From the NCBI GenBank assembly GCA_963718875.1, contig OY970378.1, positions 4,396 to 68,395 of the forward strand: DNA of 64,000 nt, written 5' to 3'. The position numbers and the translations under genes were made by a program. Positions 3,001-59,971 of the stretch are shown here, in pieces; the stretch's first letter is position 1; each line of letters opens with the position of its first letter. The DNA comes from Candidatus Parcubacteria bacterium. GTDB lineage: Bacteria > Patescibacteriota > Saccharimonadia > UBA4664 > JBIOIQ01. The notes under the pieces are model-generated. The model had not been told where the DNA came from. It ran no database searches and was given only the letters and a program-made list of their open reading frames with translations.

Positions 3001-6000
3001 TGGCGGTGTAGGTTGTACCGCCTGTCAGGGTGCCGCTAGTGGTTATGCCGGTGCTGGAAACACCAAAGTAGGTTGATCCTCCACCATTACTTTGGACCTC
3101 AAGTAGCCTTGCTCCAATTGGACTGGCGTTGTCCTGGACGGTAAGGGCACCGCGGGTTGCATCAACCACTATCTCGACAGCTGTGGGGGAGTTAGTATAG
3201 CCGGCTTGGAGGGTCGAGCCAGAACCGGTACCGGCACAGCTGCTCCAAATTGGGGCGGCGGAGTTTTGCCCAATCAAACATTGGCCGGTTGTACCTTGAG
3301 CCGTGACACCAAGCCCGCTGGTGGCGTTTCCATAAATGACGCCGTATTGAGTAAACGTGGTCTGGCCTGTGCCTCCATACCCAACGGCAATTGTGTTGCC
3401 GTTGTAGGTGACGTTTTGCAGCAAACCGGCGTTGGTAAGACGGGTGGTGCCTGCTGTGTTGATGTTGCCTGCTTGAACATTAAGGTTTCCAGTATTAACC
3501 ACTGTGCCATTAGTAGTGGAAACCGCCAAAAGATCGGTGCCGTTGTTTTGGACGGCAAACTTACTGGTAGAACCAGTGGCGATATTGACGGTAAAGTTGG
3601 AATCGGTGGTTTCATTGGTGAGAGTAACTGCTAAGTCACGGCCGGCAGTGTAGCCAGCGCTTGAGAGTGTATTGCCATTATCGTAGGCGGCCTGAAGCGT
3701 TGATCCGGATCCTGCACCGGAACAAGAGCCCCAAACTGGATTGCCGGCAGTTGATACCAGACATAGTCCGGCACTACCGGCCGCGGCCGTCATGCCTACT
3801 GCCGAGGTACCATTACCATACAAAATCCCATTTGCCGTAAGAGTAGCACGCCCGGTCCCACCTTGAGCCACATTAACGGCCGTAAAGCCGGTAGTAAGGG
3901 AGCCAGAGCTAAGCGCGCCCACTTGAGCAATGTTGGAGTAACTGACCCCCGTAGAAAAGCCGGCATTTTGGATTGTGCCGCTGCCGTTAATAATGGGCGT
4001 GGCGCCGGCCACCAAAATGGAGTTGTAGCCGGTTCCAACCGTTAAAGCGTTAAAGACGTTATTGGTGACGGTAGTGACGTTGGGTAGGTTTAAAGCATTG
4101 AGTATATTGGCGTTGGTGTTGGCGTTGGCTCCGCCCACAGGAGTAACAGACAGGCCATTGACGGTAGTAACCGTGGCGCTGGCATTGGTGTTGGTGACTG
4201 CTATATTGGCAGAGCTTGAGTTATTGGCTCCGGATGCCGAAACCGAAAAGTAGGTGTTCGTACCGGCGTTATTTTGGACTTCTAGCAAGGGGCTTGAGGT
4301 AATGGGAGTGCCATTGTCGCGAATTGTTAATGCTTTGTTGGTGTTGTCTAAGACAATCTCATTAACACCAGAGTTGGTGTAGGCACTTTGCAGCGTGTTT
4401 CCCGAACCGCTGCCGGAGCAAGCCTGCCAAGTTGGGGCAGCTGAGTTATTGCCCATAAGACATTGGCCAGTATTACCCACAGCGCTGACTTGCAAGGTGC
4501 TGGAGCCATTGCCCAGGAGTACCCCATACTGAGTAAACGTAGCGGCGCCAGTACCACCGTTTGTAACTCCAAGGGTTCCAGTAACAGCGGCTGATTGGGA
4601 GATATCAATAGACCCAAAAGCCGGTGCTCCCCCGACGCTGGGAACACGAAAGACCTGGTTGGCCGTACCGGCAGCTGTTACATTAAGCGCCGAGGCGTTA
4701 TTACCCAACAGTACTCCATTGAGTGTAAAGGTAGCCGCGCCCGTGCCTCCCCTAGCTACCCCCAAGGTACCAGCGGTAAGAATATTGGTATTGGCAGTGA
4801 CTGAGTTGGTGTTGTCGAGCGAAACGTTTTGCAGAATCCCAGTACTGCCAAGACGAATAGTGCCTCCGGTGAGAAGATTTCCATTAAGATTTAGCTCGGG
4901 TAGCGTCATCTCTTTGGTTACGTATATATCATCCCATTTATGAACTACGCCAGTGGTGCCTGAGCCTGTACGTAAGAAGATACGTAGAAAGGCGGCATCT
5001 GCTGGTGCGGTGGCGTTACCAGAAATTCTGGTCCATGTATCGGCGGTGGTTGAGCCAAACCCGGGATAGGTATTTGGGGTAATGGCTGAATCGGTACCAT
5101 TTTTTTGTTTCCAGTTGAACCTTAGTCCCCCTTGACCTGCTGAGGTGATAGATTTTATCCAGGCTTCGCCATACCATATTTCCCCGCCTTGGGTTGGAAT
5201 ATCAATTGAATGTTCGTAGTAAAAGTTGCCGGCAGTTGAAGTAGAGGTAACGGCGAAGTTACCGGTTCGGGTATCTGTAGACTCAAGTGCATAAGAGGCA
5301 CTATTTACCCATCCTTCGTCCTCGTTTCCAGTTTCAAAGCCTGGGTTATCGATGTAGTTATCGTAAGTTCCAACCCCTGTATTCATTATCTGAACTTGGC
5401 CACCTTGTAAGGTAATACCGGCTGACCCAGCGTCAATATTAACGGCCGTCGCCCCGGTAGTATTGCCTAACGTAATTGTTTTGGCGTTAGCACTCGTGCC
5501 AATATTGAGAGCGCCGACGGTGCCGGAGTCGACTGTCAATATTGTGCCAGCTCCGGAAGCGAGCGTTACGGCCCCGGTGCCTGTGATATTGGTACCAACT
5601 CCGGTAATACTCCCGGCGTTAGTAATACCGGTGGAGTTAACGTCGATTCCACCAGCCGATACGGTGAGGCCACCAGTATTAACTACCGTTCCGCCAGCCG
5701 TTGTAACCCGCAAAAGATCGGTGCCATTGTTTTGGACGGCAAATTTGCCGGTAGAGCTAGTGGCAATATTTACTAAAAAGTTAGAGTCAGTAGCGGTATT
5801 AACCAATGTAATGCTAACGTCCTTAGCATCGGTAGTCGCAATAGTATTGCCGTTATCGTAAGCTGCTTGCAAAGTTGAGCCAGATCCAACTCCAGAGCAG
5901 GTTTGAAATGTCGGAGCAAAGCCGACCCCATTTGAGACTAAACATTGGCCGTCTGTTCCGACAGTCGTTGTTGCAAGGGTTGTAGAGTTACTAGCATAAG

Positions 6001-7441
6001 CCACCCCATTGACGGCAAAGCCACTCCCAAGAGTAAGAGTGCCAGAGTTGTCGGGCAGGGTCATGATTCTGGTTCCACTAGTGGAGGCCCCTGTAAAGCG
6101 GAAGTTGTTAGTGCCGGGGGTCCCGGACGTACCGGAAATAAACAGCTCGCCAAATGGTAAAGTAGCCGAACCTATATTAACGGCGCCGGCCGTGCCCGGT
6201 AATAGCGAGGTATTAATAGCTACGCTAGCTAGGTTAGAAAGGGCGGTGTTGGCTCCCCCGCCGCCGGCCCCAGCACAAGAGCCAAAAGCCAGGGTCCCGG
6301 CGTTGTCGGTGGTGGTAACACATTGACCCGTGCTACCTACTGCAGTAGGTAGCGTTAGGTTAAAAGTACTGGCGGTGGCACCGCTTTGGAGCGTAACCGT
6401 GTTGGAGTTGGCGCCGTTAAAAAACCTGACGGAACCGAGTCTTCCAGCGCTGGAAGCACCGAGGGTTAAGGAGGCAGAGGTAGGAATGGTAACACCGATG
6501 GCGCCGTGACCAATGTTGATGGCGGACGCATTGGTGGTACCAATGTTTATTACACCGGTGGTTCCAGTAGCAGTACCGGAGTCGACCGTAATATTGCCAG
6601 AATTTGAAGTTGTGCCACTAGCATTGCCGCTTTGTAGCGTCAGGACGTTGGAATGGGTGCTGGCGGCGTTGGTAGGAGCGGTTTGCAAAACGCCATTGAT
6701 AGAGATATTTCCAGTGCTGCCGTCAACGTTTAAAGCCGTAATGGTGCCACCGGCGTTTTGGATCCTAAAAGCGGTAGCGCTAGAGTTTTGGAATAGATTG
6801 GTACCACTAAAGGTTTGGTTGGCGGCTAGTTGGCCAAACTGGCTAGCGGTAAGCCCGCCGAGCTGACCCGCGTTTTGGGCATACGGGGAGGCTGTAAAGC
6901 GGATCATGGGTAGCATTTCCCCGTCCGGCGAACAGTTGGCAAACACGTTGGTGGCGCCACAATTGGTGGTGTTGCCCAAGTTGATCGATAGCCAAATGGT
7001 GTCGTTATTCCAAATATTGGTTGGTAGCGGGTTGCCGCCTTGGGCACCAAGGTTTACTTGAAAAATACCGCTACTTACGGAAATGGAGGTGGAGTTGTTG
7101 ACCAAGTGATCTTCGGTAAAAACTAAAGTTCCACCGGGGTTGCCAGCACTGGTTCCGGCTCCATCGGTGTAGAGCTTAAACTGAACATTATAGTTGCCGT
7201 CGGTAATATTGGTGCCATTAACATTGACTAGCTTGCCCTGAAAGTTAACTTGGGAATTAATGCCGACCGCAGCATTGGCTTGCGGCAAACTCCAAGACAC
7301 AAGAAACAAGTTACAAACAATAGCCAATATCCAAGCACCAAGTGCCCAATGTTTGTGAGTTGTGTGTTGTGTGTTGTGTGTTGTGTGGCGATTGTGTCTT
7401 GCTGGTTTCTTACCAAAAAACTTAGTTTTTCGAGTACGCAA
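1..7441 (-). CDS. giant repetitive secreted surface protein (N-terminal >2480 aa; C-terminus lies beyond window start). Thr/Gly/Asn/Ser/Ala-rich with internal ~180-aa repeat modules containing paired Cys
   Basis: Minus-strand frame (codon low coordinate = 2 mod 3) stays open from a TTG at 7441 (or GTG 7498) to position 1. Hand translation at 7100-7440 and 2940-3000 gives plausible protein. N-terminus reads KKPARHNRHTTHNTQHTTHKHWALGAWILAIVCNLFLVSWSLPQANA|AV, a signal peptide with AXA site. Plus-strand ORFs in this span are V/P/A-rich antisense artefacts. Internal nucleotide repeats, e.g. 3531-3590 vs 5711-5770. Confidence 0.6.
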   Translation of the reverse strand, partial: MRTRKTKFFGKKPARHNRHTTHNTQHTTHKHWALGAWILAIVCNLFLVSWSLPQANAAVGINSQVNFQGKLVNVNGTNITDGNYNVQFKLYTDGAGTSAGNPGGTLVFTEDHLVNNSTSISVSSGIFQVNLGAQGGNPLPTNIWNNDTIWLSINLGNTTNCGATNVFANCSPDGEMLPMIRFTASPYAQNAGQLGGLTASQFGQLAANQTFSGTNLFQNSSATAFRIQNAGGTITALNVDGSTGNISINGVLQTAPTNAASTHSNVLTLQSGNASGTTSNSGNITVDSGTATGTTGVINIGTTNASAINIGHGAIGVTIPTSASLTLGASSAGRLGSVRFFNGANSNTVTLQSGATASTFNLTLPTAVGSTGQCVTTTDNAGTLAFGSCAGAGGGGANTALSNLASVAINTSLLPGTAGAVNIGSATLPFGELFISGTSGTPGTNNFRFTGASTSGTRIMTLPDNSGTLTLGSGFAVNGVAYASNSTTLATTTVGTDGQCLVSNGVGFAPTFQTCSGVGSGSTLQAAYDNGNTIATTDAKDVSITLVNTATDSNFLVNIATSSTGKFAVQNNGTDLLRVTTAGGTVVNTGGLTVSAGGIDVNSTGITNAGSITGVGTNITGTGAVTLASGAGTILTVDSGTVGALNIGTSANAKTITLGNTTGATAVNIDAGSAGITLQGGQVQIMNTGVGTYDNYIDNPGFETGNEDEGWVNSASYALESTDTRTGNFAVTSTSTAGNFYYEHSIDIPTQGGEIWYGEAWIKSITSAGQGGLRFNWKQKNGTDSAITPNTYPGFGSTTADTWTRISGNATAPADAAFLRIFLRTGSGTTGVVHKWDDIYVTKEMTLPELNLNGNLLTGGTIRLGSTGILQNVSLDNTNSVTANTNILTAGTLGVARGGTGAATFTLNGVLLGNNASALNVTAAGTANQVFRVPSVGGAPAFGSIDISQSAAVTGTLGVTNGGTGAATFTQYGVLLGNGSSTLQVSAVGNTGQCLMGNNSAAPTWQACSGSGSGNTLQSAYTNSGVNEIVLDNTNKALTIRDNGTPITSSPLLEVQNNAGTNTYFSVSASGANNSSSANIAVTNTNASATVTTVNGLSVTPVGGANANTNANILNALNLPNVTTVTNNVFNALTVGTGYNSILVAGATPIINGSGTIQNAGFSTGVSYSNIAQVGALSSGSLTTGFTAVNVAQGGTGRATLTANGILYGNGTSAVGMTAAAGSAGLCLVSTAGNPVWGSCSGAGSGSTLQAAYDNGNTLSSAGYTAGRDLAVTLTNETTDSNFTVNIATGSTSKFAVQNNGTDLLAVSTTNGTVVNTGNLNVQAGNINTAGTTRLTNAGLLQNVTYNGNTIAVGYGGTGQTTFTQYGVIYGNATSGLGVTAQGTTGQCLIGQNSAAPIWSSCAGTGSGSTLQAGYTNSPTAVEIVVDATRGALTVQDNASPIGARLLEVQSNGGGSTYFGVSSTGITTSGTLTGGTTYTASTALQAPLLDTASNVALNIGTTNASVINLNQDTVVATGQNFSLAGGLASQNGYLLADAATNNLLVNGDFEQGTYGWSGINSSVTGGYSGDQAAEITTQSATVLSNDYIPVDPTRDVLQLEGYFKKTVAGGTPGVMYFGYIAYNAAKTAITTAPCGTYCYFAASGYVLPADGNWHKLSATTTGEGTVAGNFPVNTRYVRVLGLINYGATGATTQMDHITLKRINHGPLFVGNNFNATNMTDQYQASQLYTSAAGNLVLTAHDSGNVGIGTTTPNGIFQVATPTAGPGTVATNATITLTGTNTEFLNTFKVGDTITVQGETVRTIATIPSNTSLTVTVAFSTTASPLTYTLTGGERLTVLGNGNVRVGATTPVSNALIAAISNGNSIEFGHTNTAGYRSTIGAQSNDGAPFLAFNAEAGTNINTYLTRGIAGSILKSNLAGGFLFGNAPTATADNQAFTQSASLTAAGVLNVSTGYQIAGAAASGNYLRGNGTNFVSSAILAADLPAGSTNYIFNQSGLQASSNFHISGTGTADTSFVTPTLAAPAATGLAITANATSIWQVGGTNQNLTVQTSGTGTLTLDTVGSGTVTVGTNATTINLGTGTAAQTANVGTSTGTNAVNIATPNNSANTIKIGGTGGAAANSHSGTTITLQAGATATVLNNAGLNLQTFTNSTTAFQVANSIGAQSINIDTTDTNTITNPSFEGTDMSAWLKKIGTETTVARVTTQQYIGNAALQLTTTAVNSQGVKQNITLTPGTYTFSAFLKNQSGAVNYVFGYAADGATEVDCVQPMPTVPTTGWTRYACTMSTTATSGTPYLYFRQTTAAARTIYLDGVQIDAGAGVRPYGPGTISLNGVINSPVSFQNSVNSTNAFEIQNATGTSSLFVADTLNGRIGIGTSSPQQALTLGAGNAAAIETGAPAAPTLICNTSGGNLADGTYAYKIGASDGVGTTTAGAEASCSIAGGGGAGSVDLSWTAVTGAISYRVYGRTPSAQLLMSTVIA
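7355..7385. repeat. heptanucleotide repeat (CACACAA)x3 plus one imperfect unit on the coding strand, inside the 5' end (n-region of the signal peptide) of the giant gene
   Basis: Plus strand reads gtgtgttgtgtgttgtgtgttgtgtgg. Encodes HNTQHTTHNTQ-like residues. Confidence 0.8.
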
Positions 7442-7605
7442 AAGCAGTGTGGCTTGTATTTGAAGCGATAGAGGTACGAGTAAAAATACCCATATCACGC
7501 TCTGTAACTTCACTCTCACAAGCACCACACGTTACAGGTGTGATTATATCAAAATGGTTATGCTAATGCAAGTCCTCTGAGTACAATCGGTAAATTGAAA
7601 AGCGA

Positions 7606-7944: not shown

Positions 7945-8889
7945 TTAATCGCTCTTTTGATGCTTTTGCCTTAATTGTCTTTTGTAAATAAATACCCCCA
8001 AAGATGTAACAACAGTAAGACCTAATATAATCGCAGCAAGTAAAATAAGGGCTCCTCTTGGAATGTAGTAGAGGCTTGTCTTATAGGTAGTAAAGTTATC
8101 TCGGCCATCATAACGATACTGAACGACTAGCTGGTATTTACCAGGAGCGGATATGCGCCGAGTCGTCATTAGGGGAACAGTAAAACGGCGAAAAGAATCT
8201 GGCAGAATCCGCGATGACTCCTCATTAATGGCGGCCCGAGCCACCTCGCGACCACGCGGATCAAGTAAACGAATAACTCCTCGAGGAACGACATCTATAT
8301 TGCCCTTATTATGAAACCGCGCTTTCAAAGACAACGTTTGCCACCAGTCGGTGGCGGGCTGAACGCTATCTAGCTTGAGGTCATATTTTTCGCCGCCGAT
8401 TTTATTTACAAACAGCAAGGTGGAGAGCACGGATTGGACAATTACCTTGTCTTTGGAGGCAGCTGCTGTAGGCTGTTCCCCTAGCAAGATGGCACCGTAA
8501 TGTCCTCCGGGAGTCAAAGACGGCTGATTATTAATGCTAGCCCGCATGGTTTTAACTTCGCCGGGTCGTAAAGTCACAGTACTATCACTTAGCGTGAGCC
8601 AATTTACTAACCCATGGGGGCGAATTTGACCAGGTGTGCTAGCCAAGAAAGCTACCCCTCCTGATTCGTCTAGACTACCGAAGTCGCTGGTAGATAAAGT
8701 AAAAGTTTTAGTTTGCGACGGGTCATTGTTGGTTACAGAATAGCTAAAATCGGCTGTCTGCTGGTCTTTGGTTATGGTTATGTTTTGAAATGGAGGTGAA
8801 ATTGTCACTCCCTCGGCGGCAAAAGCATTGTTTTTAACTACGCAAAGTGCAATGACAACAGTGAAGGCTACAAACAACCATCGTCGCAT
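7945..8889 (-). CDS. cell-surface protein with signal peptide, beta-rich ectodomain, C-terminal TM helix + basic tail (DUF916/DUF3324-like; diverged paralog of the next two genes)
   Basis: ORF 7945..8949; likely start MRRWLFVAFTVVIALCVV at 8889. C-terminus ...LILLAAIILGLTVVTSLGVFIYKRQLRQKHQKSD. Confidence 0.45.
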   Translation of the reverse strand: MRRWLFVAFTVVIALCVVKNNAFAAEGVTISPPFQNITITKDQQTADFSYSVTNNDPSQTKTFTLSTSDFGSLDESGGVAFLASTPGQIRPHGLVNWLTLSDSTVTLRPGEVKTMRASINNQPSLTPGGHYGAILLGEQPTAAASKDKVIVQSVLSTLLFVNKIGGEKYDLKLDSVQPATDWWQTLSLKARFHNKGNIDVVPRGVIRLLDPRGREVARAAINEESSRILPDSFRRFTVPLMTTRRISAPGKYQLVVQYRYDGRDNFTTYKTSLYYIPRGALILLAAIILGLTVVTSLGVFIYKRQLRQKHQKSD

Positions 8890-8890
8890 T

Positions 8891-9916
8891 TTATCGCCTC
8901 CGGGGTAACAACTTACGGATAATTTTTTTAACAGTCGACTGCAACCCAATGATCATAAAAATACTTACGAATACAAGAACTCCAATCACCCGCCACGGCA
9001 CCACCCAAAAGCTAACGCTGCCGGTAAGAGGGATGTCTCTGGTGCCGTCATTGTAGGCCATGGTAAAGCTGGCGGTGTACTTACCAAAACGGAGCTTGGG
9101 AACTTGGGTAAAGTCCCACTTAAGGGTCATTTCCGGTTGGTTGTTTTTAATGATGGGTTTACCATCTTGGAGCTTAGGGACATAGACAGGAAAGCCATCT
9201 TTCCAGGCGGCAGTGTAAATACGGTTGGAGTTGGGCAGGATATTGCCCCCCGAATCATTAACGTCAATGGTGGAAACAGGTTTCTTGCCTTTGGTAATGA
9301 AAATGTTACCTTTGGGAACTACGTGAATATTACCAGCATTACGGAGCTTAATGTTAAAAGTAGCCGGTAGGAACTCGTAGAACTTGTGGTCGGCAGTAAA
9401 GCTGACAGGGGTAAGTTGGCGCTTAGTGTTAGGAGAGTTAACTGCTAGCAACACTAGGGTGGCACTGGAACCGGCCACTACAGCTTCGGCGCCGGTAGGC
9501 TTAATGTCTTCCGCTCGGGAAAAAGTAGCAGCCAGGTAGTAGCCAAAGGCAGCTGTTTTAGGAATAGCGATGGTCATCTTGATGGTTTTCCACTCTCCTG
9601 GTGGAGCGTCAAACACGCTGGGGCTAAATTTAACCCAGTCAAAATAGCTGTCCGCAGCCTGGCGGTCACTTAAAACTGGTGAGCCGTCCTCACCCTGGGC
9701 GCCAAACTTAATTAAGCCAACTTTTAGACGTTCGGGAGCAGTGCCATTGTTTTTAACCCGCAAGTCGGCAGTGACAGTAGTGCCAGGATTGGCGGTTAGG
9801 TTAATGGGGAGAGGTGAAGTAGCGATGGAGAGTGGTTGTCCGGCGGCGGTGAGCGGGAGAGGGATAAAAAGGAGGGACAGGGCAATTAAAAAAAGCGAGT
9901 GTGCCAGCTTCGTCAT
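8891..9916 (-). CDS. cell-surface protein (DUF916/DUF3324-like), copy 2 of tandem duplicate
   Basis: Likely start ATG 9916 (MTKLAHSLFLIALSLLFIPLPLTAAGQ), overlapping the upstream stop in ATGA. ~330 aa identical to the 9913..10971 product except signal peptide and C-terminal anchor. C-terminal TM + KKIIRKLLPRRR. Confidence 0.5.
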   Translation of the reverse strand: MTKLAHSLFLIALSLLFIPLPLTAAGQPLSIATSPLPINLTANPGTTVTADLRVKNNGTAPERLKVGLIKFGAQGEDGSPVLSDRQAADSYFDWVKFSPSVFDAPPGEWKTIKMTIAIPKTAAFGYYLAATFSRAEDIKPTGAEAVVAGSSATLVLLAVNSPNTKRQLTPVSFTADHKFYEFLPATFNIKLRNAGNIHVVPKGNIFITKGKKPVSTIDVNDSGGNILPNSNRIYTAAWKDGFPVYVPKLQDGKPIIKNNQPEMTLKWDFTQVPKLRFGKYTASFTMAYNDGTRDIPLTGSVSFWVVPWRVIGVLVFVSIFMIIGLQSTVKKIIRKLLPRRR

Positions 9917-10917
9917 CGCTGTCTCTTTGCGGCCCGTTTCATGCGTCGTTTCATCAGCCAATAAACCAGGATAGCTGGCACAACCGGAACGGCTATACCG
10001 AAGAGAATCACCCGCCACGGCACTACCCAAAAGCTAACGCTGCCGGTAAGAGGGATGTCTCTGGTGCCGTCATTGTAGGCCATGGTAAAGCTGGCGGTGT
10101 ACTTACCAAAACGGAGCTTGGGAACTTGGGTAAAGTCCCACTTAAGGGTCATTTCCGGTTGGTTGTTTTTAATGATGGGTTTACCATCTTGGAGCTTAGG
10201 GACATAGACAGGAAAGCCATCTTTCCAGGCGGCAGTGTAAATACGGTTGGAGTTGGGCAGGATATTGCCCCCCGAATCATTAACGTCAATGGTGGAAACA
10301 GGTTTCTTGCCTTTGGTAATGAAAATGTTACCTTTGGGAACTACGTGAATATTACCAGCATTACGGAGCTTAATGTTAAAAGTAGCCGGTAGGAACTCGT
10401 AGAACTTGTGGTCGGCAGTAAAGCTGACAGGGGTAAGTTGGCGCTTAGTGTTAGGAGAGTTAACTGCTAGCAACACTAGGGTGGCACTGGAACCGGCCAC
10501 TACAGCTTCGGCGCCGGTAGGCTTAATGTCTTCCGCTCGGGAAAAAGTAGCAGCCAGGTAGTAGCCAAAGGCAGCTGTTTTAGGAATAGCGATGGTCATC
10601 TTGATGGTTTTCCACTCTCCTGGTGGAGCGTCAAACACGCTGGGGCTAAATTTAACCCAGTCAAAATAGCTGTCCGCAGCCTGGCGGTCACTTAAAACTG
10701 GTGAGCCGTCCTCACCCTGGGCGCCAAACTTAATTAAGCCAACTTTTAGACGTTCGGGAGCAGTGCCATTGTTTTTAACCCGCAAGTCGGCAGTGACAGT
10801 AGTGCCAGGATTGGCGGTTAGGTTAATGGGGAGAGGTGAAGTAGCGATGGAGAGTGGTTGTCCGGCGGCGGTGAGCGGGAGAGGGATAAAAAGGAGGGAC
10901 AGGAATATGGCTAAACT
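8988..10917. repeat. tandem direct duplication, two ~1020-bp units (~910 bp >99% identical) spanning the two DUF916-like genes
   Basis: 8991-9897 matches 10011-10917 with a single mismatch noted at the 5' edge. Identical antisense ORFs appear twice in the ORF track. Confidence 0.9.
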
Positions 10918-10971
10918 AAAACGGGTAAAATTAAAAGCACTCCACTTCATGTTGTAAGTATACCCTAGCAT
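9913..10971 (-). CDS. cell-surface protein (DUF916/DUF3324-like), copy 1 of tandem duplicate
   Basis: Signal peptide MKWSAFNFTRFSLAIFLSLLFIPLPLTAAGQ (start 10971 or 10950). C-terminal TM + KRRMKRAAKRQR. Confidence 0.5.
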   Translation of the reverse strand: MLGYTYNMKWSAFNFTRFSLAIFLSLLFIPLPLTAAGQPLSIATSPLPINLTANPGTTVTADLRVKNNGTAPERLKVGLIKFGAQGEDGSPVLSDRQAADSYFDWVKFSPSVFDAPPGEWKTIKMTIAIPKTAAFGYYLAATFSRAEDIKPTGAEAVVAGSSATLVLLAVNSPNTKRQLTPVSFTADHKFYEFLPATFNIKLRNAGNIHVVPKGNIFITKGKKPVSTIDVNDSGGNILPNSNRIYTAAWKDGFPVYVPKLQDGKPIIKNNQPEMTLKWDFTQVPKLRFGKYTASFTMAYNDGTRDIPLTGSVSFWVVPWRVILFGIAVPVVPAILVYWLMKRRMKRAAKRQR

Positions 10972-10991: not shown

Positions 10992-12209
10992 TTAGAATCT
11001 ACCGGCGGCAACAATTGTTAGAGTGTCGGCGTAGTCGGTGGCGGCAGGAGTAACGCCGGAAACAGTGGCACGCTCAACGAAGTTAATGACGTCACCAGCT
11101 GAAGTTCCGGTTGAGGAGGCGAATGGGGAATAAAAGCTGGGGTTAATGGGGCCCATTTTACAGGTACCGTTACCGGAGCAGGTGGCAAATCCACCCGTAG
11201 AGTCGTAGGCGGCATTGGCACTGGGGGTTCCAGCTTGGCCACCACCACCGGCGGTAACAGAGGTAACAGCAAAACCGTAGTCTTCAGCACCGGCCGTATT
11301 AGTGTGAGCAGCAGTACCAATTGAGTTAGTGGTGTTGTTAGATATTTTGTAGTTAGCAGCAGTTGGTGACATGAGGGCTCCATGTAAGTTGCCCGAGGAA
11401 GTATCGGAAACGGTTTTGGCGTTTGCACTTAAATCTTTAACATACGCTACCCAACCGCCGTTGGCATTGGTGGTGACGGAAATGTTTAAGGCCGCCGTTG
11501 AGACTGTGCTAGAGGGGTCTAGGTTGGTACTAAATGCTTGTGAATTACCACTTAGAGTAAAGATGAAAGTTGGCGGAACAGTGGCTGTAACATTAACTTG
11601 ATCGGCGGTGATGCTTGAACCAATGATGGAAACAGCATATGCGCTGGTGGCGGCGTCGGCAGTACCTGGGTAAGCGCCTGTACGAGTTGTAACTGTGCCA
11701 GCCAAGTTATTGCCCGAAGTAGCAGGAGTCCTAAGCGCGGTAGTGGAGTTGGTCCAGTTAAAGCAGTAAACGGCCGCCGAAGCAAGGTTGCCACTAACAA
11801 AATCGACGGTTTGAGCAGCAGGTGCGTTGGTAGGCTGAGCGATGCCGGTCCATGCTACCGACCCCGCAGGCCACGATGTGTTAGTTGTACTATTAACAGC
11901 CCAATCTGCTTGGGTGGCGCTAAGAACAAATCCAGTAGGGAATACTACTCGAGCGGTAGTTTCGGTGCCAGCCACATTGGCGGCAGACATGTTGGCGCAA
12001 ACCGTACCCGAAGCAAAGACGCTACCGCCGTTGGAGGCAGCAACGCGATCAAGTCGTACTGTGATTTCGTTAAACTCAGGTGCCGCCATAGCCGTACCCG
12101 TCATAAACGGAACAAAAGCTTGGAATAGTAAAGCAACGATACTTGCAATACGCAGGCGTTGAAGGAAGTTTCTATTTAGAAACTGGTTTCTCATCAATTT
12201 ATAACCCAC
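10992..12209 (-). CDS. secreted protein, paralog A (pilin/fibre-subunit-like; ends ...ATDYADTLTIVAAGRF)
   Basis: Signal peptide (RLRIASIVALLFQAFVPFMTGTAMAAPE). 3' half nucleotide-identical to the paralog at 12343..13527. Confidence 0.55.
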   Translation of the reverse strand: MGYKLMRNQFLNRNFLQRLRIASIVALLFQAFVPFMTGTAMAAPEFNEITVRLDRVAASNGGSVFASGTVCANMSAANVAGTETTARVVFPTGFVLSATQADWAVNSTTNTSWPAGSVAWTGIAQPTNAPAAQTVDFVSGNLASAAVYCFNWTNSTTALRTPATSGNNLAGTVTTRTGAYPGTADAATSAYAVSIIGSSITADQVNVTATVPPTFIFTLSGNSQAFSTNLDPSSTVSTAALNISVTTNANGGWVAYVKDLSANAKTVSDTSSGNLHGALMSPTAANYKISNNTTNSIGTAAHTNTAGAEDYGFAVTSVTAGGGGQAGTPSANAAYDSTGGFATCSGNGTCKMGPINPSFYSPFASSTGTSAGDVINFVERATVSGVTPAATDYADTLTIVAAGRF

Positions 12210-12288
12210 TTGCTAAAACTCTAATGCTTAAATCATAATCATGAATTTACTCATTGTCAACCTCTCTTCAGATACCTGCGTTCCATAA

Positions 12289-12320
12289 CAAAAAGACCCT
12301 CGTATGAAGGTCTTTTTGTT
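12289..12320. terminator. bidirectional rho-independent terminator (aaaaagacc-loop-ggtctttttgtt)
   Basis: Perfect hairpin flanked by an A-tract and a T-tract, immediately downstream of the minus gene ending at 12343. Confidence 0.55.
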
Positions 12321-12342
12321 ATAACTAAAGTAAAAGTATCTT

Positions 12343-13527
12343 TTAGAACCTGCCAGCGGCAACAATAGTTAGAGTGTCGGCGTAGTCGGTGGCGGCAGGA
12401 GTAATACCAGCAATGTTGGCACGCTCTACAAAGCTAATGACGTCACCAGCTGAAGTTCCGGTTGAGGAGGCAAATGGGGAATAAAAGCTGGGGTTAATGG
12501 GGCCCATTTTACAGGTACCGTTACCGGAGCAGGTGGCAAATCCACCCGTAGAGTCGTAGGCGGCATTGGCACTGGGGGTTCCAGCTTGGCCACCACCACC
12601 GGCGGTAACAGAGGTAACAGCAAAACCGTAGTCTTCAGCACCGGCCGTATTAGTGTGAGCAGCAGTACCAATTGAGTTAGTGGTGTTGTTAGATATTTTG
12701 TAGTTAGCAGCAGTTGGTGACATGAGGGCTCCATGTAAGTTGCCCGAGGAAGTATCGGAAACGGTTTTGGCATTGGCACTTAAATCCTTGACGTAAGCCA
12801 CCCAACCAGCCGAGGCGTTGGTGGTGACAGAAATGTTTAAGGCCGCCGTTGAGACAGTGGTAGCAGGATCTAGGTTGGTACTAAATGGTTGGGAGTTACC
12901 ACTTAGAGTAAAGATGAAGGTTGGCGGAACAGTGGCTGTAACATTAACTTGATCGCCTGTTCCACCGGAGCCTATTACAGAAGTGGCGTAGTTACTAGAG
13001 GCGGCGTCGGCAGTACCTGGGTAAGCGCCTGTACGGGTTGTAACTGAGCCGGTCAGGTTGTTCCCCGCACTGGCTGGCGTACTAAGGGCTGTGGTTGTGT
13101 TGGTCCAGTTAAAACAATAAATATTTGCCGAGGCAAGGTCACCGCTTACAAAGTCGACGGTTTGACCGGTGGGCGCATTAGTAGGTAGAGAGATGCCGGT
13201 CCATGATACTGCCCCCACAGGCCACGAGGTGTTAGATGTACTGTTAACCGTCCAGTTAGCAGGTGTAGTGCTGACAGTAAAGCCCGTAGGAAACACTACC
13301 CTGACGGTGGTTTCGGTGCCAGCTACATTGCCCGCGGTTGCGTTGACGCAAACGGTTCCGGAAGTAAAGACCGTACCCGCGGAAAGACGATCAAAACGAA
13401 CTAAAGCATAAGTGTACGGAGCGGCGGCGGCAGTGCCTACCATAAATGGAACAAAAGCTTGGAATAGTAAAGCTACGATGCTGGCTATTCGAAAGCGCTG
13501 AAATATTTTATGATTGTGTATTTTCAT
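12343..13527 (-). CDS. secreted protein, paralog B (same family; identical C-terminal ~150 aa ending TLTIVAAGRF)
   Basis: Signal peptide MKIHNHKIFQRFRIASIVALLFQAFVPFMVGTAAAAPY. N-terminal half diverged from paralog A, C-terminal half identical. Confidence 0.55.
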   Translation of the reverse strand: MKIHNHKIFQRFRIASIVALLFQAFVPFMVGTAAAAPYTYALVRFDRLSAGTVFTSGTVCVNATAGNVAGTETTVRVVFPTGFTVSTTPANWTVNSTSNTSWPVGAVSWTGISLPTNAPTGQTVDFVSGDLASANIYCFNWTNTTTALSTPASAGNNLTGSVTTRTGAYPGTADAASSNYATSVIGSGGTGDQVNVTATVPPTFIFTLSGNSQPFSTNLDPATTVSTAALNISVTTNASAGWVAYVKDLSANAKTVSDTSSGNLHGALMSPTAANYKISNNTTNSIGTAAHTNTAGAEDYGFAVTSVTAGGGGQAGTPSANAAYDSTGGFATCSGNGTCKMGPINPSFYSPFASSTGTSAGDVISFVERANIAGITPAATDYADTLTIVAAGRF

Positions 13528-13622
13528 GGCTGTTGTTGAGTTTCCCCTTTTTTTATTTTTGTTTTTTTATATGAATACATTAAGAGTTTGGATCAAAGTT
13601 CTTATGCTGTCAAGCTTTTTTT

Positions 13623-13754
13623 CTGACCCACGTGCACTTTGCGAATTTTGATGTCATGTTGAGCTTGTCGAAACATCTATCCAGATAGATCTCTTCCGTC
13701 GACTGACGGATCGAGATGACAATAGGAAGAGAACTAAAAGTGCACGTGGGTCAG
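13623..13754. repeat. MITE-like element: 18-bp perfect terminal inverted repeats (ctgacccacgtgcacttt / aaagtgcacgtgggtcag) enclosing a palindromic core shared with 25913-26000
   Basis: Inverted-repeat arms at 13623-13640 and 13737-13754. Internal atgtcatgttgagc...gtcgaaacatctatccagatagatctc...cgagatgacaat. Confidence 0.6.
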
Positions 13755-13774
13755 CTTTTTTTGGCCTTTATTGG

Positions 13775-14809: not shown

Positions 14810-15108
14810 ACCCTTATCATAAGATAAGCATAGGCGTTTTACAACGGGACTAGGGTTGGTTCATTACGCTTAAAGCGGAAAGCATACTTTTATGCAGTGT
14901 AAATGGACTTTCAATAACTCCGGGTGGCTTTTCTTTAGCATGGAACTCTAGCAATATCTTGGTAAGAAGCGTCCTCAGAAGCCAATCCCCGATACGGATC
15001 ACAAACCGGTCCAGACAGCTTCAATCATTTTCGGCCAGGTTAATTTTAGTTTTAAAGAACCCGACTTAAAGACCAGGTGAAGGCGTATCATTTTTGAGGT
15101 TTTTAGGA

Positions 15109-15132
15109 AGTTATATAACGTGTTATATAACT
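15109..15132. promoter_or_regulatory. operator-like perfect inverted repeat agttatataac-gt-gttatataact (11-bp arms)
   Basis: Seen directly. Lies in the 870-bp AT-rich non-coding region upstream of the minus gene 13775..14809. Confidence 0.3.
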
Positions 15133-15680
15133 ATTTGTCTTTTTAAAAAATGCAATAGCCCAGGTTGAGCATCTGGCTGAAAATGTGAGGCATAATAGGC
15201 AGGTTGTATGGTTAAATTAACCATACAAATTTCAAAATTATATAATTCGTCAAACACCCTAAAAAGACATAAGTACTTCCTGCCCGAAAAAGGCATAGGC
15301 ACTCTCTTAAATAAAAAGCTAGGTTAGTGGGCTAGTTATCTCTTCGTTCAAAAACACTAAGGGATTACCACAGACGTCAAGCTGCTAAAAGACTTTTGAC
15401 TTCTGCTAGCGGGAGATAGGAGAGGCTGCACAAAGACATTTAAATGGTCTTATCTTAAATGTGTGCTACTTGCCCAGCATCTACCTGTCGGTAGACGCTG
15501 GGCTCAACAAATATGTAAGATGCCGCGTGTCCGAACCGAAAAAACGCAACTTAGCATTATGACAGCCCTGTCCGCTAAAAGTTTCAAAACTTTACTTAAA
15601 CAGCTCTGGTCATCTAGAGGCTAACTGGTTTGTCCTAGTTAGATTGTAGCTTGTTCCGTTTTAGCGTAATGAACCTGAGG

Positions 15681-16277
15681 TTAGTTCCAGCGAAAAGTGG
15701 ACATAATGTGATCCATGACTGCGCCATGCTCATCGGCATCTGCTTGTGGCGACGTAAAAGCAATTGTGGCTAGCTTATCGTGGCGCGGAATAAAAACCGT
15801 TTGCTCATAGCCTTCCTGAGTTTTTGTCATTATGATGGCTTCACTTCCGCCTACCTGTGCTTTTGTTTGAGTATAAAGTTCTGGCCTAAGTTGACGAAAA
15901 CGATATGAGGAATTTTCATTTATATTGGTAAAGCGAGCCTGGACGGCTACCGCCAGATGGTCGGAGCCGGCGATGCTACTAGTATTAAGAAGAAAATTGT
16001 CAAGATCGCCATAGCTCGCGCCATTCCCAAGCGGGGCTAAACTAAAGGACGAGGGATAAGAAAGGGTAAAAGTTTTTCCTTTCAGTTCTATATATGTTAC
16101 TTTTTTGCGGCTGGCGACAGAGGCTGTAGGGGTTTTTGTTTGAACCGTGCCTTGGGCAGGATTAGAGAGCAGATTTTTCAAGAGCCACCCGACCGCAAGC
16201 AATATCATGACAATACAGACTGTTCCTAATATAATGAGTCGTCGCGGTTTTGAAGTTTTAGTCATATCCGGAGGCAT
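15681..16277 (-). CDS. membrane-anchored hypothetical protein (N-terminal TM)
   Basis: ORF with TM segment LIILGTVCIVMILLAVGWLL; 6 nt downstream of the PKD gene, likely co-transcribed. Confidence 0.45.
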   Translation of the reverse strand: MPPDMTKTSKPRRLIILGTVCIVMILLAVGWLLKNLLSNPAQGTVQTKTPTASVASRKKVTYIELKGKTFTLSYPSSFSLAPLGNGASYGDLDNFLLNTSSIAGSDHLAVAVQARFTNINENSSYRFRQLRPELYTQTKAQVGGSEAIIMTKTQEGYEQTVFIPRHDKLATIAFTSPQADADEHGAVMDHIMSTFRWN

Positions 16278-16283
16278 GCTACT

Positions 16284-17252
16284 TTAAGTACCTAACGCTG
16301 GAGTTTGTGGTAGTCCTCGCTCCTCAGCTTTACGTCCTCGCCATTCACCCAACCAAAAGCTAACTACCATTAAAAGCAGAAGCGCCCAGATTGGCCAGGC
16401 CAAAAGCAACTGTCCCCCAGTAGGTCGGCTTGTAGTAAGCGCGGCTCCGACGTCGTTATTCACGATGGCGGCTAACTGTAACAGACCAGCTGTGCCAACC
16501 GAATCTACCGCTTTAATGGTTAAAACGTAACTGCCCTTATAACCGCCAGCTTTTTTGTATGTATGGGTGATGGTGAACTTGCCGGGAGTTGTGCGGGTGA
16601 AGAGATTGCTTGTTCCATCGCCCCAATCCACACTAACGGCATATGGGGCTTGACCGCCGAGTACTTCGACTTCCCAACTAACATTCTGACCAGGAACACT
16701 GCCTTTATAGATGCTGGGGGCTTTAATGATGACGTTGCCGTTTTGGCCATTAACCGAACCGTTAATGACATTAAGGGGGCTGGACGGTAAATCGTAGTAC
16801 GCAATCACTTCATTTGAATCTGGGCTTGATTGGTTGGCTTGATTTAGCATTTTTGCTACCAATTTGTTTTGCCCTATAAAAAGGTCGGCCTGCATGGCAA
16901 ATTGCCCCGTACGATCACAAATGACGGCCCCAGCAAGTACATCGTTTTTATAAACGTTGACCAGTAGCCCGCTTTGACAGGTACCCCTAATATTGATGGG
17001 GTTACTGGTGAAGCGCTGGCCATTTGCTGGGGCTGTAATAATAGGCCCATTTTTAGGGATAGCCCCCGGCACGACCGCCTGGACAGATATGGTACTAGTA
17101 ACAGGAGGAGGATCGTCAGCTTGGGCGAAAGCAGTAAGGCCAGCTAAGATGACTCCAGCAAGTAAAGTCACAAAAAGCAGCGATCCGTAAGAAGTGTGAT
17201 GGTGGGGTTGATAACGACCAGTGTGGCGATGGGGACTAAGCTTTGGTTTCAT
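16284..17252 (-). CDS. PKD-domain surface protein with signal peptide and C-terminal TM anchor
   Basis: PKD motif VSVDWGDGTS...ITHTY. N-terminal HHHTSY + hydrophobic segment. C-terminal LLLAWPIWALLLLMVVSFWLGEWRGRK. ATG at 17252 (the track's 17255 start is TTG). Paralog at 38021..38965. Confidence 0.65.
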   Translation of the reverse strand: MKPKLSPHRHTGRYQPHHHTSYGSLLFVTLLAGVILAGLTAFAQADDPPPVTSTISVQAVVPGAIPKNGPIITAPANGQRFTSNPINIRGTCQSGLLVNVYKNDVLAGAVICDRTGQFAMQADLFIGQNKLVAKMLNQANQSSPDSNEVIAYYDLPSSPLNVINGSVNGQNGNVIIKAPSIYKGSVPGQNVSWEVEVLGGQAPYAVSVDWGDGTSNLFTRTTPGKFTITHTYKKAGGYKGSYVLTIKAVDSVGTAGLLQLAAIVNNDVGAALTTSRPTGGQLLLAWPIWALLLLMVVSFWLGEWRGRKAEERGLPQTPALGT

Positions 17253-17257
17253 CAAGG

Positions 17258-17599
17258 TTATTGTAGCATAATAGCTTTGAGCTTTGAGCTTTGAGCTTTG
17301 AGCTTTGAGCTTTGAGCTTTGAGCTTTGAGCTTTGAGCTTTGAGCTTTGAGCTTTGAGCTTTGAGCTTTGAGCTTTGAGCTTTGAGCTTTGAGCTTTGAG
17401 CTTTGAGCTTTGAGCTTTGAGCTTTGAGCTTTGAGCTTTGAGCTTTGAGCTTTGAGCTTTGAGCTTTGAGCTTTGAGCTTTGAGCTTTGAGCTTTGAGCT
17501 TTGAGCTTTGAGCTTTGAGCTTTGAGCTTTGAGCTGGTTAATTATGTTTTGAGGAACTGAAGTGTCAAATGCCTGCCCTGAGCGAAGACGAAGGGTCAA
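17258..17599 (-). CDS. repeat-encoded ORF (MTLRLRSGQAFDTSVPQNIINQ-(LKAQSSK)n-AIMLQ); translation uncertain
   Basis: The 7-bp repeat is stop-free in all three minus-strand frames. The ORF ends 5 nt before the PKD gene ATG. Confidence 0.2.
   Translation of the reverse strand: MTLRLRSGQAFDTSVPQNIINQLKAQSSKLKAQSSKLKAQSSKLKAQSSKLKAQSSKLKAQSSKLKAQSSKLKAQSSKLKAQSSKLKAQSSKLKAQSSKLKAQSSKLKAIMLQ
17273..17535. repeat. heptanucleotide microsatellite (AGCTTTG)~37 (CAAAGCT on the gene strand)
   Basis: Perfect 7-bp periodicity over ~263 bp, ending 21 bp upstream of the PKD gene start codon. Confidence 0.95.
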
Positions 17600-26578: not shown

Positions 26579-26742
26579 CTGAATCAAGAAACTCCCAACC
26601 TGTCATTCCCTATCGGAAGCCAAACTCCACCCTTGCCTAGTTTGGTGCTCCGGATAGGGAATCAGATCCTCCGGTCATCCGTCGCTTGACGGACGTAGGA
26701 TGACAAGTGAGGTTAACAGATGTAGAGGTTTCTTGATTCAGG
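26579..26742. repeat. composite MITE-like element: 15-18-bp terminal inverted repeats (cctgaatcaagaaac / gtttcttgattcagg) enclosing family C and family D palindromes
   Basis: Terminal inverted repeats at 26579-26593 and 26728-26742. Family C hairpin at 26601-26665, family D at 26673-26707. Confidence 0.75.
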
Positions 26743-41738: not shown

Positions 41739-41860
41739 GATACTTTGAGACCTCCGTCTCTCGGAAGAGTAGGACTAAACGGATCTCTTTTTTAGCACAT
41801 ATCGGTGCTACTGTCAATCATAAGTGTTGTTTTTGCTCTCTGTGAATCCCTAAACATCAC

Positions 41861-41936
41861 TGTCATTCCCTATAGGAAGCCAAGCTCAACTATCGCCTAG
41901 CTTGGCGCTCCTGATAGGGAATCTAGAAAAAAAAAC
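41861..41936. repeat. family C palindromic repeat element (tgtcattccctataggaagcc...ggcgctcctgatagggaatctag)
   Basis: Copies at 26601-26665, 59706-59771, and inverted at 61867-61931. Confidence 0.8.
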
Positions 41937-41972
41937 ATTTTTTTCTTATAAGCGGAGGGTTTTTGCTAATAC

Positions 41973-59642: not shown

Positions 59643-59705
59643 ACGCTAGAAGTCACAACTGCACCAAATGTCATATAAGCCCGTGAATCCGAAGCCTCCT
59701 ATTAC

Positions 59706-59771
59706 TGTCATTCCATATAGGAAGCCAAGCTCATCTATTGCCTAGCTTGGCGTTCCTGATAGGGAATCTAG
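59706..59771. repeat. family C palindromic repeat element
   Basis: tgtcattccatataggaagccaagctcatctattgcctagcttggcgttcctgatagggaatctag. Confidence 0.8.
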
Positions 59772-59971
59772 AACGAAAAACTTTTCTTTTCTGGATCCCC
59801 GATCAGAAGCGGTCGTTGTCATCTGAGCACCAGTACTTTAAAAGACCTTTCTATCGAGGATGACAAAAGTAGTTTATGGAAATGAGTGCGGCATTCGCGT
59901 TCATAACGTAAAACCTTAAATGTAGTCAAGAGGTTTGTCTTTTTCCGTTCAGCGGTGATAAAATCCTAAGC

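Follow-up and report, generated by a model that had tools for sequence, protein, structure and literature searches.

Tandem Pam-type pilin paralogs of a Saccharimonadia operon share a C-terminal tract that was probably homogenized by gene conversion

Pam pili, described only in 2026, are thought to make the first host contact for parasitic bacteria of the candidate phyla radiation (CPR). In Candidatus Mycosynbacter amalyticus, the system comprises the pilins PamA, PamB, and PamE, the chaperones PamC/PamD, PamT, and PamR. Cryo-electron microscopy structures of PamA and PamB showed that these pilins polymerize by donor-strand exchange, that the donor strand is the internal linker between the two domains, and that stretches of PamA and PamB succeed one another in the filaments; conservation in Pam pilins is highest in the linker and the C-terminal domain, ATP synthase genes are conserved neighbors of the pam operon, and a protein called "tail fibre-like" occurs near pam operons (bioRxiv 10.64898/2026.03.03.709456). 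That preprint makes no mention of duplication, paralogs, or gene conversion. Here we describe a pam operon with two tandem pilin genes in a 64,000-nucleotide (nt) stretch of contig OY970378.1 (positions 4,396 to 68,395), hereafter the window, from a Saccharimonadia genome deposited as Candidatus Parcubacteria bacterium.

The two genes lie on the minus strand and encode pilin A (10992 to 12209; open reading frame [ORF] of 405 amino acids [aa], for which an ATG at residue 6 is the likelier start) and, upstream of it, its tandem paralog pilin B (12343 to 13527; ORF of 394 aa). An initial annotation, made from the sequence alone, had placed both ORFs correctly and had taken their products for secreted pilus or fiber subunits with a divergent N-terminal part and a conserved C-terminal assembly domain, a reading supported by their probable membership in the Pam family and by the pam operon around them. 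Alignment of the two genes at the nucleotide level, which mapped the identity boundary, was colinear from end to end with 3 small indels near the 5' end, and 233 of its 1218 columns differed. Identity was a mosaic and not uniform: per 60 nt, it was about 45 to 80% in the first 600 columns, 80 to 97% up to column 840, 100% in columns 841 to 1080, and 83 to 93% from there to the stop codon. The 5' two-thirds, with the N-terminal domain, are about 70 to 80% identical in nucleotides. The mismatch-free stretch (columns 790 to 1088) corresponds to positions 11122 to 11420 in A and 12473 to 12771 in B, that is, 299 nt with 0 differences at an offset of 1351 nt, and it grows to 337 nt from position 11084 when one mismatch is allowed. 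It encodes residues 264 to 363 of A, in the middle of the C-terminal domain, and the last 130 nt of A (10992 to 11121) are 88.5% identical to B. The predicted proteins are 83% identical over their full length; the value is 69% for the N-terminal domain and 95% for the C-terminal one, and the core of the signal peptide and the linker strand are identical.

These values refine the initial annotation in three respects. The segment 11030 to 11400, described there as essentially identical to a second copy, matches B at 360 of 371 positions (97.0%) with the offset of 1351 nt, and at only 28.8% with the offset of 1350 nt that its coordinates imply. Identity over the C-terminal ∼150 aa holds perfectly for the 299 nt that encode residues 264 to 363 and not for the end of the gene. 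As for the N-terminal ∼200 aa, they are indeed more divergent, but calling them different was an overstatement, since the two domains have the same fold and homology extends over the whole length. When the differences between A and B were permuted over the whole gene, a mismatch-free run of at least 299 nt was obtained in 0 of 20,000 trials, and in 0 of 200,000 when permutation was confined to the 3' half (618 columns, 40 differences). As the 299-nt run was never reached, the mosaic is real and beyond chance.

Synonymous (dS) and nonsynonymous (dN) divergence was computed by the Nei-Gojobori method on the codon alignment of A and B. dS was 1.13 in the N-terminal domain (residues 46 to 200 of A), 0.51 in the linker and the start of the C-terminal domain (residues 201 to 263), 0.013 in the tract (residues 264 to 363), and 0.31 at the 3' end (residues 364 to 405). 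The dS of 1.1 in the N-terminal domain rules out a simple recent duplication of the whole gene. By this gradient, the duplication is old and the tract very recent, with intermediate ages for the remainder of the 3' half; several conversion events fit this pattern, and a single one does not. Gene conversion is expected to leave a discrete tract with homogenized synonymous sites between diverged homologous flanks, and this is what we observed (dS of 0.013 versus 0.31 to 1.13). In the N-terminal domain, dN/dS was ∼0.16 and substitutions affected 20 of 67 positions in predicted strands and 27 of 88 nonstrand positions; this domain is under purifying selection and carries no signature of hypervariable loops. 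We consider it likely that A and B are old tandem Pam-type pilin paralogs whose 3' half was rehomogenized by gene conversion.

Since the tract spans loops that are variable in the family, with many unconserved consensus positions, constraint on the protein cannot explain its synonymous identity. Selection on the nucleotide sequence itself, for example, through an embedded RNA element or an overlapping frame, could also keep two copies identical, and ORFs in an alternative frame do cover both tracts (11018 to 11428 and 12426 to 12779). However, these ORFs are low-complexity translations of another frame of the same strand and are unsupported, the region has no match in Rfam, and the positions and lengths of the tracts differ among related genomes (see below), unlike those of a fixed embedded element. 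Such selection is therefore an extremely improbable cause of the identity.

The genes around A and B identify the locus as a pam operon. The ORF at 16284 to 17255 (minus strand) encodes an RbmA-like anchor protein with a C-terminal transmembrane segment, which matched the NCBIfam model NF058578, "pilus system RbmA-like protein PamR," over profile positions 3 to 288 of 297 (E = 2.6e-78; 262.9 bits for a cutoff of 300). Further along the operon lies a third pilin paralog, P3 (13775 to 14809, minus strand; 344 aa), whose first ∼70 residues matched the NCBIfam family "CPR-type pilus protein PamT" with an E of 1.6e-7, far below the cutoff. Downstream of A are three genes for membrane-anchored chaperone-like proteins, and the genes for the alpha, gamma, and beta subunits of an F1F0 ATP synthase (atpA, atpG, and atpD) directly adjoin the operon. 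Thus, the locus contains PamR, a PamT-related minor pilin, two-domain pilins, and membrane-anchored chaperones next to ATP synthase genes. Because of these neighbors and of their predicted architecture, we concluded that A and B would be Pam-type pilins, sized like the smaller PamB, the comparison with the prototypes being by description only.

A and B each begin with what looks by eye like a signal peptide: in A, the hydrophobic core RIASIVALLFQAFVPFM is followed by AMA↓A, with cleavage near residue 42, and in B, the core RIASIVALLFQAFVPFM is followed by AAA↓A. An AlphaFold2 model of A, built on an alignment of 64 sequences, had a mean predicted local distance difference test score (pLDDT) of 89.6 and showed a helix at residues 13 to 36, strands between residues 48 and 196, a lone linker strand at residues 215 to 219, and a beta domain at residues 236 to 403. 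The layout of A is thus an N-terminal beta-sandwich (∼43 to 200), a linker strand (∼205 to 220; VTATVPPTFIFTLS), and a C-terminal domain (∼226 to 405). This predicted architecture matches the published description of Pam pilins, namely, a beta-sandwich, a single linker strand, and a truncated immunoglobulin (Ig)-like acceptor domain. The most conserved columns of the family fall in the linker and the C-terminal strands, where D203 to L219, T247 to G252, and A389 to F405 are invariant or nearly so. A search of 5.8 billion proteins retrieved 70 homologs of A, all unannotated, the named ones coming from metagenome-assembled genomes (MAGs) of Saccharimonadia or Patescibacteria. A profile search with the family gave 1450 clusters (50% identity), of which 369 had an E of up to 1e-30; the matches include some long proteins that carry the pilin module at the C terminus. 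Family members of 780 to 1640 aa with a complete C-terminal module are P0273, P0276, P0277, and P0284 and those encoded in related loci L025 (11199 to 14003) and L054 (2595 to 4886). They might act in the same fiber as large pilins or as adhesins attached to it.

P3 is a distinct, conserved class of minor pilin. The initial annotation had credited it with sharing only the final strand motif with A and B, which understates the relationship: in P3, homology to the A family spans the linker and the C-terminal domain in full, ∼160 aa (hmmsearch E of 1e-23; hhalign probability of 99.5% and E of 2e-23 over 159 columns). Its orthologs sit directly upstream of the main pilin in most of 79 related loci, and 19 of 34 of them match PamT in the N terminus. 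The middle part of P3 contains fibronectin-III-like motifs, as judged by eye.

The chaperone-like genes, all on the minus strand, offer a second case of homogenization. They encode protein C (9913 to 10971; 352 aa), assigned to the PamC/PamD class with AlphaFold2 and Foldseek, protein D (8891 to 9916; 341 aa, P0144), whose start codon overlaps the stop codon of C (ATGA), and a third, divergent paralog (7945 to 8949; 334 aa) with a C-terminal transmembrane segment and a match to the hidden Markov model of the chaperone family; all three belong to one family. C and D share 879 identical nt (9003 to 9881 and 10025 to 10903), which encode the entire ectodomain, and the identical tract reaches 898 nt from position 8984 with one mismatch. 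The signal peptides and transmembrane tails of C and D are unrelated in sequence. A simple recent tandem duplication of C and D is ruled out, since the two identical blocks are separated by 124 nt without a match to either flank and since the ends of the two genes are orthologous by copy across genomes. Concerted evolution is more evident in the translationally coupled C/D pair than in the pilin pair.

We then compared the locus with those of related genomes, taking one genome per species and keeping the best 79 loci of 239 relatives; M. amalyticus was not among the loci kept. Two tandem full-length pilins were present in 12 of the 79 loci. Perfect tracts between tandem pilins measured 642 nt (L004), 497 nt (L035), 354 nt (L036), 950 nt (L040), and 127 nt (L078), and all five reached the 3' half of the gene, the 5' parts being 30 to 70% identical. 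In these tandem pairs, the C-terminal domains were identical within genomes. The N-terminal domains followed the copy: those of L030 and L078 were 0.84 and 0.79 identical between orthologous copies versus 0.65 to 0.67 between paralogs within a genome, and in L004 and L035 each N-terminal domain was closer to a copy in another genome than to its own paralog. The chaperones behaved alike. Copies 1 and 2 differed at 0 to 2 positions in a core of ∼835 nt in 12 other genomes, with one escaped case (L056; 213 mismatches), and the core showed 63% protein identity between genomes whichever copies were compared. Transmembrane tails were 0.41 and 0.37 identical between orthologous copies versus 0.22 to 0.29 between paralogous ones. 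Together, these results show that one module within old duplicates undergoes concerted evolution in the relatives.

These comparisons bear on a different history, in which the whole pilin gene was recently duplicated in tandem and one copy then had its 5' part replaced by a divergent allele from another strain. An identical 3' part joined to a diverged 5' part is the expected trace of such an import, Saccharibacteria are described as naturally competent (PMC10633639), and tract lengths do vary among relatives. Yet one import cannot produce at least four levels of divergence (dS of 1.13, 0.51, 0.013, and 0.31) together with an internal perfect tract. The 5' domains in the relatives show orthology copy by copy across genomes, which makes both heads long-standing residents of the locus, and the adjacent chaperone pair has copy-specific ends conserved across more than 12 genomes. 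We therefore hold this import to be unlikely.

Some of the observations weigh against gene conversion between old Pam-type paralogs as an account of A and B. The nearest homolog outside A and B of the window is 63% identical, and no close relative was found; a duplication older than speciation, as seen in the relatives, is thus only presumed for A and B themselves. A and B matched no Pfam family and had no sequence match in the PDB, and neither reached the NCBIfam Pam models, including NF058581 (CPR_Pam_pilin_C), even at an E of up to 10; that model matched a single one of the 64 family members, weakly (E = 2.6e-4). The family profile, too, gave no meaningful match for the pilins in Pfam, NCBIfam, and PDB sequence searches. 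A Foldseek search of the PDB with the model of A gave generic tandem Ig-like matches (integrin legs and MSCRAMM adhesins) with template modeling (TM) scores of at most 0.25, and no Pam entry stood among the matches listed. Experimental support for polymerization by donor-strand exchange is confined to PamA and PamB of M. amalyticus. Finally, all the relatives that bear a tract are represented by SPAdes contigs of short-read metagenomes, in which near-identical repeats may collapse to perfect ones.

The last point opens the question of an assembly artifact, in which near-identical or allelic sequences were collapsed or chimerized and the identity or the tandem arrangement is unreal. The related loci with perfect tracts all lie on SPAdes NODE contigs, and the identity of the chaperone copies is bimodal, with either 0 to 2 mismatches or more than 200. 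Against this stand the location of the window in a 1.19-Mb contig, the flanks of the A/B tract, which decay gradually (99.7%, then 84 to 88%) with no abrupt switch, and the junction segments between the copies, which need a true tandem arrangement. In addition, a long-read contig (L048) has duplicated chaperones with a perfect run of 374 nt in spite of frameshift errors. Even a collapse by SPAdes would still require the tandem arrangement and an identity of more than ∼98%, which itself implies conversion. An artifact is thus improbable.

Paralogs that evolve in concert by gene conversion are known in bacteria, for example, tufA and tufB of Salmonella. The pilin and chaperone pairs have in common with such genes that old duplicates are synonymously identical within a genome while orthologs diverge between genomes. 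They differ in that homogenization is limited to one domain, the N-terminal domain of the pilins and the signal peptide and membrane anchor of the chaperones being copy specific across many genomes. Pilin genes of Neisseria offer another parallel, as recombination between pilin-coding repeats is nonreciprocal in the pilE/pilS system. There, silent promoterless cassettes donate variable segments, whereas here the genes are complete and the conserved assembly domain is converted.

This difference matters for the likeness to antigenically variable pilins that the initial annotation had drawn. Programmed variation of the pilE/pilS type, with A or B or both receiving variable segments from silent cassettes, would suit surface fiber subunits of an obligate episymbiont, and it would be in keeping with the evidence of intragenic recombination and with a 37.6-copy heptanucleotide repeat upstream of the first gene of the operon, as such repeats can mediate phase variation. 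However, tblastn and blastn searches with A, B, and P3 across the 64-kb window retrieved only the three full genes and 0 partial or promoterless copies. Furthermore, both copies are full length with their own signals, the exchanged part is the conserved domain, and the N-terminal domain evolves with a dN/dS of ∼0.16 and substitutions that are not concentrated in loops. The antigenic-variation reading is not supported by these observations, and we judge programmed variation to be very improbable.

The heptanucleotide repeat is a perfect array of AGCTTTG (17273 to 17535; 37.6 copies, 100% match) that stands between a strong promoter-like site (TTGACA-16-CATAAT, 17568 to 17541, minus strand) and the start of pamR (ATG at 17252). 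None of the 79 related loci has a repeat of this type. The array may serve slipped-strand phase variation or form an unusual 5' leader of the pam operon.

Between B and A, a terminator-like hairpin lies 3' of B (12285 to 12322, minus strand; 19-bp stem, 4-nt loop, flanking A and U runs), with a folding energy of -24 kcal/mol (z = -7.2) and 17-nt arms that are 94% complementary. It is followed by a promoter-like site for A (12232 to 12260, minus strand), composed of TTGACA, a 17-nt spacer, and TATGAT, which matches 11 of 12 consensus positions; this is a consensus match only, and the region overall is not enriched for such sites. Because these two elements separate B from A, the two genes may be expressed independently. 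A strongly structured element of 146 nt (13615 to 13760; -55 kcal/mol, z = -6.6) occupies the intergenic region between P3 and B, flanked by A runs, with perfect inverted arms of 18 nt (13623 to 13640 and 13737 to 13754) around 96 nt. Its role may be that of a terminator or stabilizer, or it may be a small insertion. When the operon was scanned against Rfam, the only matches were spurious ones to microRNAs, derived from repeats.

Returning to gene conversion between old paralogs, the favored account of the mosaic, its most likely course is as follows. The duplication of A and B is ancient, with synonymous sites of the N-terminal domain near saturation, and the direct repeats, which lie 1351 nt apart, would have undergone RecA-type gene conversion that homogenized the 3' half repeatedly. 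The most recent event would have copied 299 to 337 nt of the C-terminal domain, and older events probably explain why the linker and the 3' end have diverged to an intermediate degree. The more conserved 3' half presumably keeps enough uninterrupted identity to recombine, and the N-terminal domain (∼70 to 75% nucleotide identity) would have escaped. By analogy with Pam pili, A and B would be exported by the Sec pathway and assembled with the help of chaperones into a fiber by donor-strand exchange, the linker acting as the donor strand and the C-terminal domain as the acceptor. As the linker is identical and the acceptor domain 95% identical, A and B may be expected to be interchangeable for the chaperones and able to copolymerize, with N-terminal domains that differ at 31% of positions.

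In many respects, the locus resembles the Pam system of M. amalyticus. Both come from CPR bacteria of the Saccharimonadia and encode proteins with Sec signal peptides, and both comprise two-domain pilins with a conserved linker and C-terminal domain, at least two pilin classes per operon, chaperones with a transmembrane helix, a PamR-like anchor, and an adjoining ATP synthase operon. Measured against the NCBIfam Pam models (NF058578, NF058579, and NF058581), the locus is divergent, A and B reaching none of them and PamR scoring 263 bits for an equivalog cutoff of 300. P3, with its 344 aa, has an additional fibronectin-III-like middle part and a linker-like strand compared with the published PamT, which has a single domain (the NCBIfam profile has 241 positions). 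The locus also has three chaperone genes, two of them with identical ectodomains, and A and B are close paralogs, unlike PamA and PamB, whose identity is low.

Chaperone-usher pili (Pap and Fim, archaic Csu, and CFA/I) share with this system Ig-like subunits that are completed by a donated strand and two-domain Ig-like chaperones. They differ in that no outer membrane is evident here, the chaperones are membrane anchored, there is no sequence similarity, and the donor strand, an N-terminal extension in chaperone-usher pili, would here be an internal interdomain linker. None of the operon proteins scanned, including the product of a giant ORF downstream of the chaperones, matched the usher family.

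The closest structural relatives of the chaperones were found elsewhere. Protein C has a signal peptide, and its AlphaFold2 model (pLDDT of 87.9) showed two Ig-like domains followed by a transmembrane helix at the C terminus (residues 319 to 351); the best Foldseek match in the PDB was the WxLIP protein of Enterococcus faecium (9i25_C; E = 8.9e-10). The WxLIP matches (9i25_C and 9i1y) had E values of about 1e-9 and TM scores of 0.35 to 0.46; the other best matches among solved structures were the chaperones CsuC and CfaA (E of about 5e-8 to 1e-7) and RbmA. In sequence, 6 of 50 members of the chaperone family matched the Pfam family PF06030 (WxLIP_PGBD) weakly, with an E of 0.001 or weaker, and C itself had no match there and no sequence match in the PDB. 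WxL clusters of Firmicutes encode WxL proteins together with WxLIP, which consists of DUF916 and DUF3324 with a transmembrane helix (PDB 9i25 and 9i1y) and which, according to predictions, inserts a beta-hairpin into the partner WxL protein (PMC10599100). WxLIP and C thus have the same architecture of two Ig-like domains and a C-terminal transmembrane helix, with modest TM scores. WxL proteins are described as peptidoglycan-bound surface proteins and not as fibers, unlike the pilins here, and A, B, P3, and 64 family members had no match to the WxL domain at an E of up to 1. These findings point to a possible common ancestry of Pam chaperones and Firmicute WxLIP, which would link Pam pili to WxL clusters; the latter are not mentioned in the preprint on M. 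amalyticus (bioRxiv 10.64898/2026.03.03.709456).

Two further genes on the minus strand accompany the operon. A protein of 198 aa is encoded within the operon at 15681 to 16277, with a hydrophobic N-terminal stretch that resembles a membrane anchor and no family match in Pfam and NCBIfam searches. The gap of ∼870 nt between this gene and P3 (14810 to 15680) is AT rich, without a convincing ORF, and contains several palindromes (15091 to 15265), with no match in Rfam. The giant ORF (2 to 7531), directly downstream of the chaperone genes, leaves the edge of the window with at least 2510 aa and is without a Pfam or NCBIfam match. It contains an internal repeat of 119 nt (3489 to 3607 and 5673 to 5791, 78% identical) and, near its start, five copies of TTGTGTG (7353 to 7387). 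It may correspond to the "tail fibre-like protein" reported near pam operons, an equivalence that we infer. Elsewhere in the window, an intergenic repeat of ∼89 nt occurs in three copies (26596 to 26684, 41856 to 41944, and 59701 to 59789), folds as a long hairpin (-30 to -36 kcal/mol, z of about -5) followed by A/T runs, and looks like a dispersed element of the repetitive extragenic palindromic (REP) or miniature inverted-repeat transposable element (MITE) kind.

Among the related loci, L016 and L040 (CAZCNN010000013 and CAZCNN010000015) come from the same MAG and contain two pam pilin loci with a tandem pair each, one pair with the 950-nt perfect tract and the other 70% identical with no tract. 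Either a genome has two such loci or the bin combines two strains. Many contigs with this operon (L004, L006, L008, L025, L059, and others) were deposited as MAGs of "uncultured Bdellovibrionales," "Gammaproteobacteria," "Pseudomonadales," or "Bacillota," labels that are probably wrong for bins of Patescibacteria.

The Pam system was already described, and its basic classification is unchanged by our results, which document an ordinary evolutionary process acting on a recently recognized system. What they add is the domain-restricted homogenization and the likeness of the chaperones to WxLIP, which may point to a broader family of strand-complementation surface systems among bacteria that lack an outer membrane. 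The locus also extends the Pam system to a divergent Saccharimonadia genome that lies beyond the reach of the curated models of Pam pilins. From the recurrence of the tracts, the conserved interface emerges as the part under functional constraint, and the prediction is that pilins with identical linker and acceptor copolymerize and share their chaperones, the N-terminal domain being the only difference between them. We propose, quite tentatively and aware that it may well prove otherwise, that Saccharimonadia Pam operons keep their assembly modules (the C-terminal domain of the pilins with the linker and the ectodomain of the chaperones) identical between old tandem paralogs by frequent gene conversion, while the copy-specific modules (the N-terminal domains of the pilins and the signal peptides and anchors of the chaperones) stay distinct. 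If this is true and selected, not merely tolerated, it would amount to a modular design in which a single polymerization interface and a single chaperone surface suit any head. Hybrid or single-copy variants could then arise in the population by unequal crossing-over within the identical tracts, a simple route to variation of the pilus surface in these genome-reduced episymbionts.

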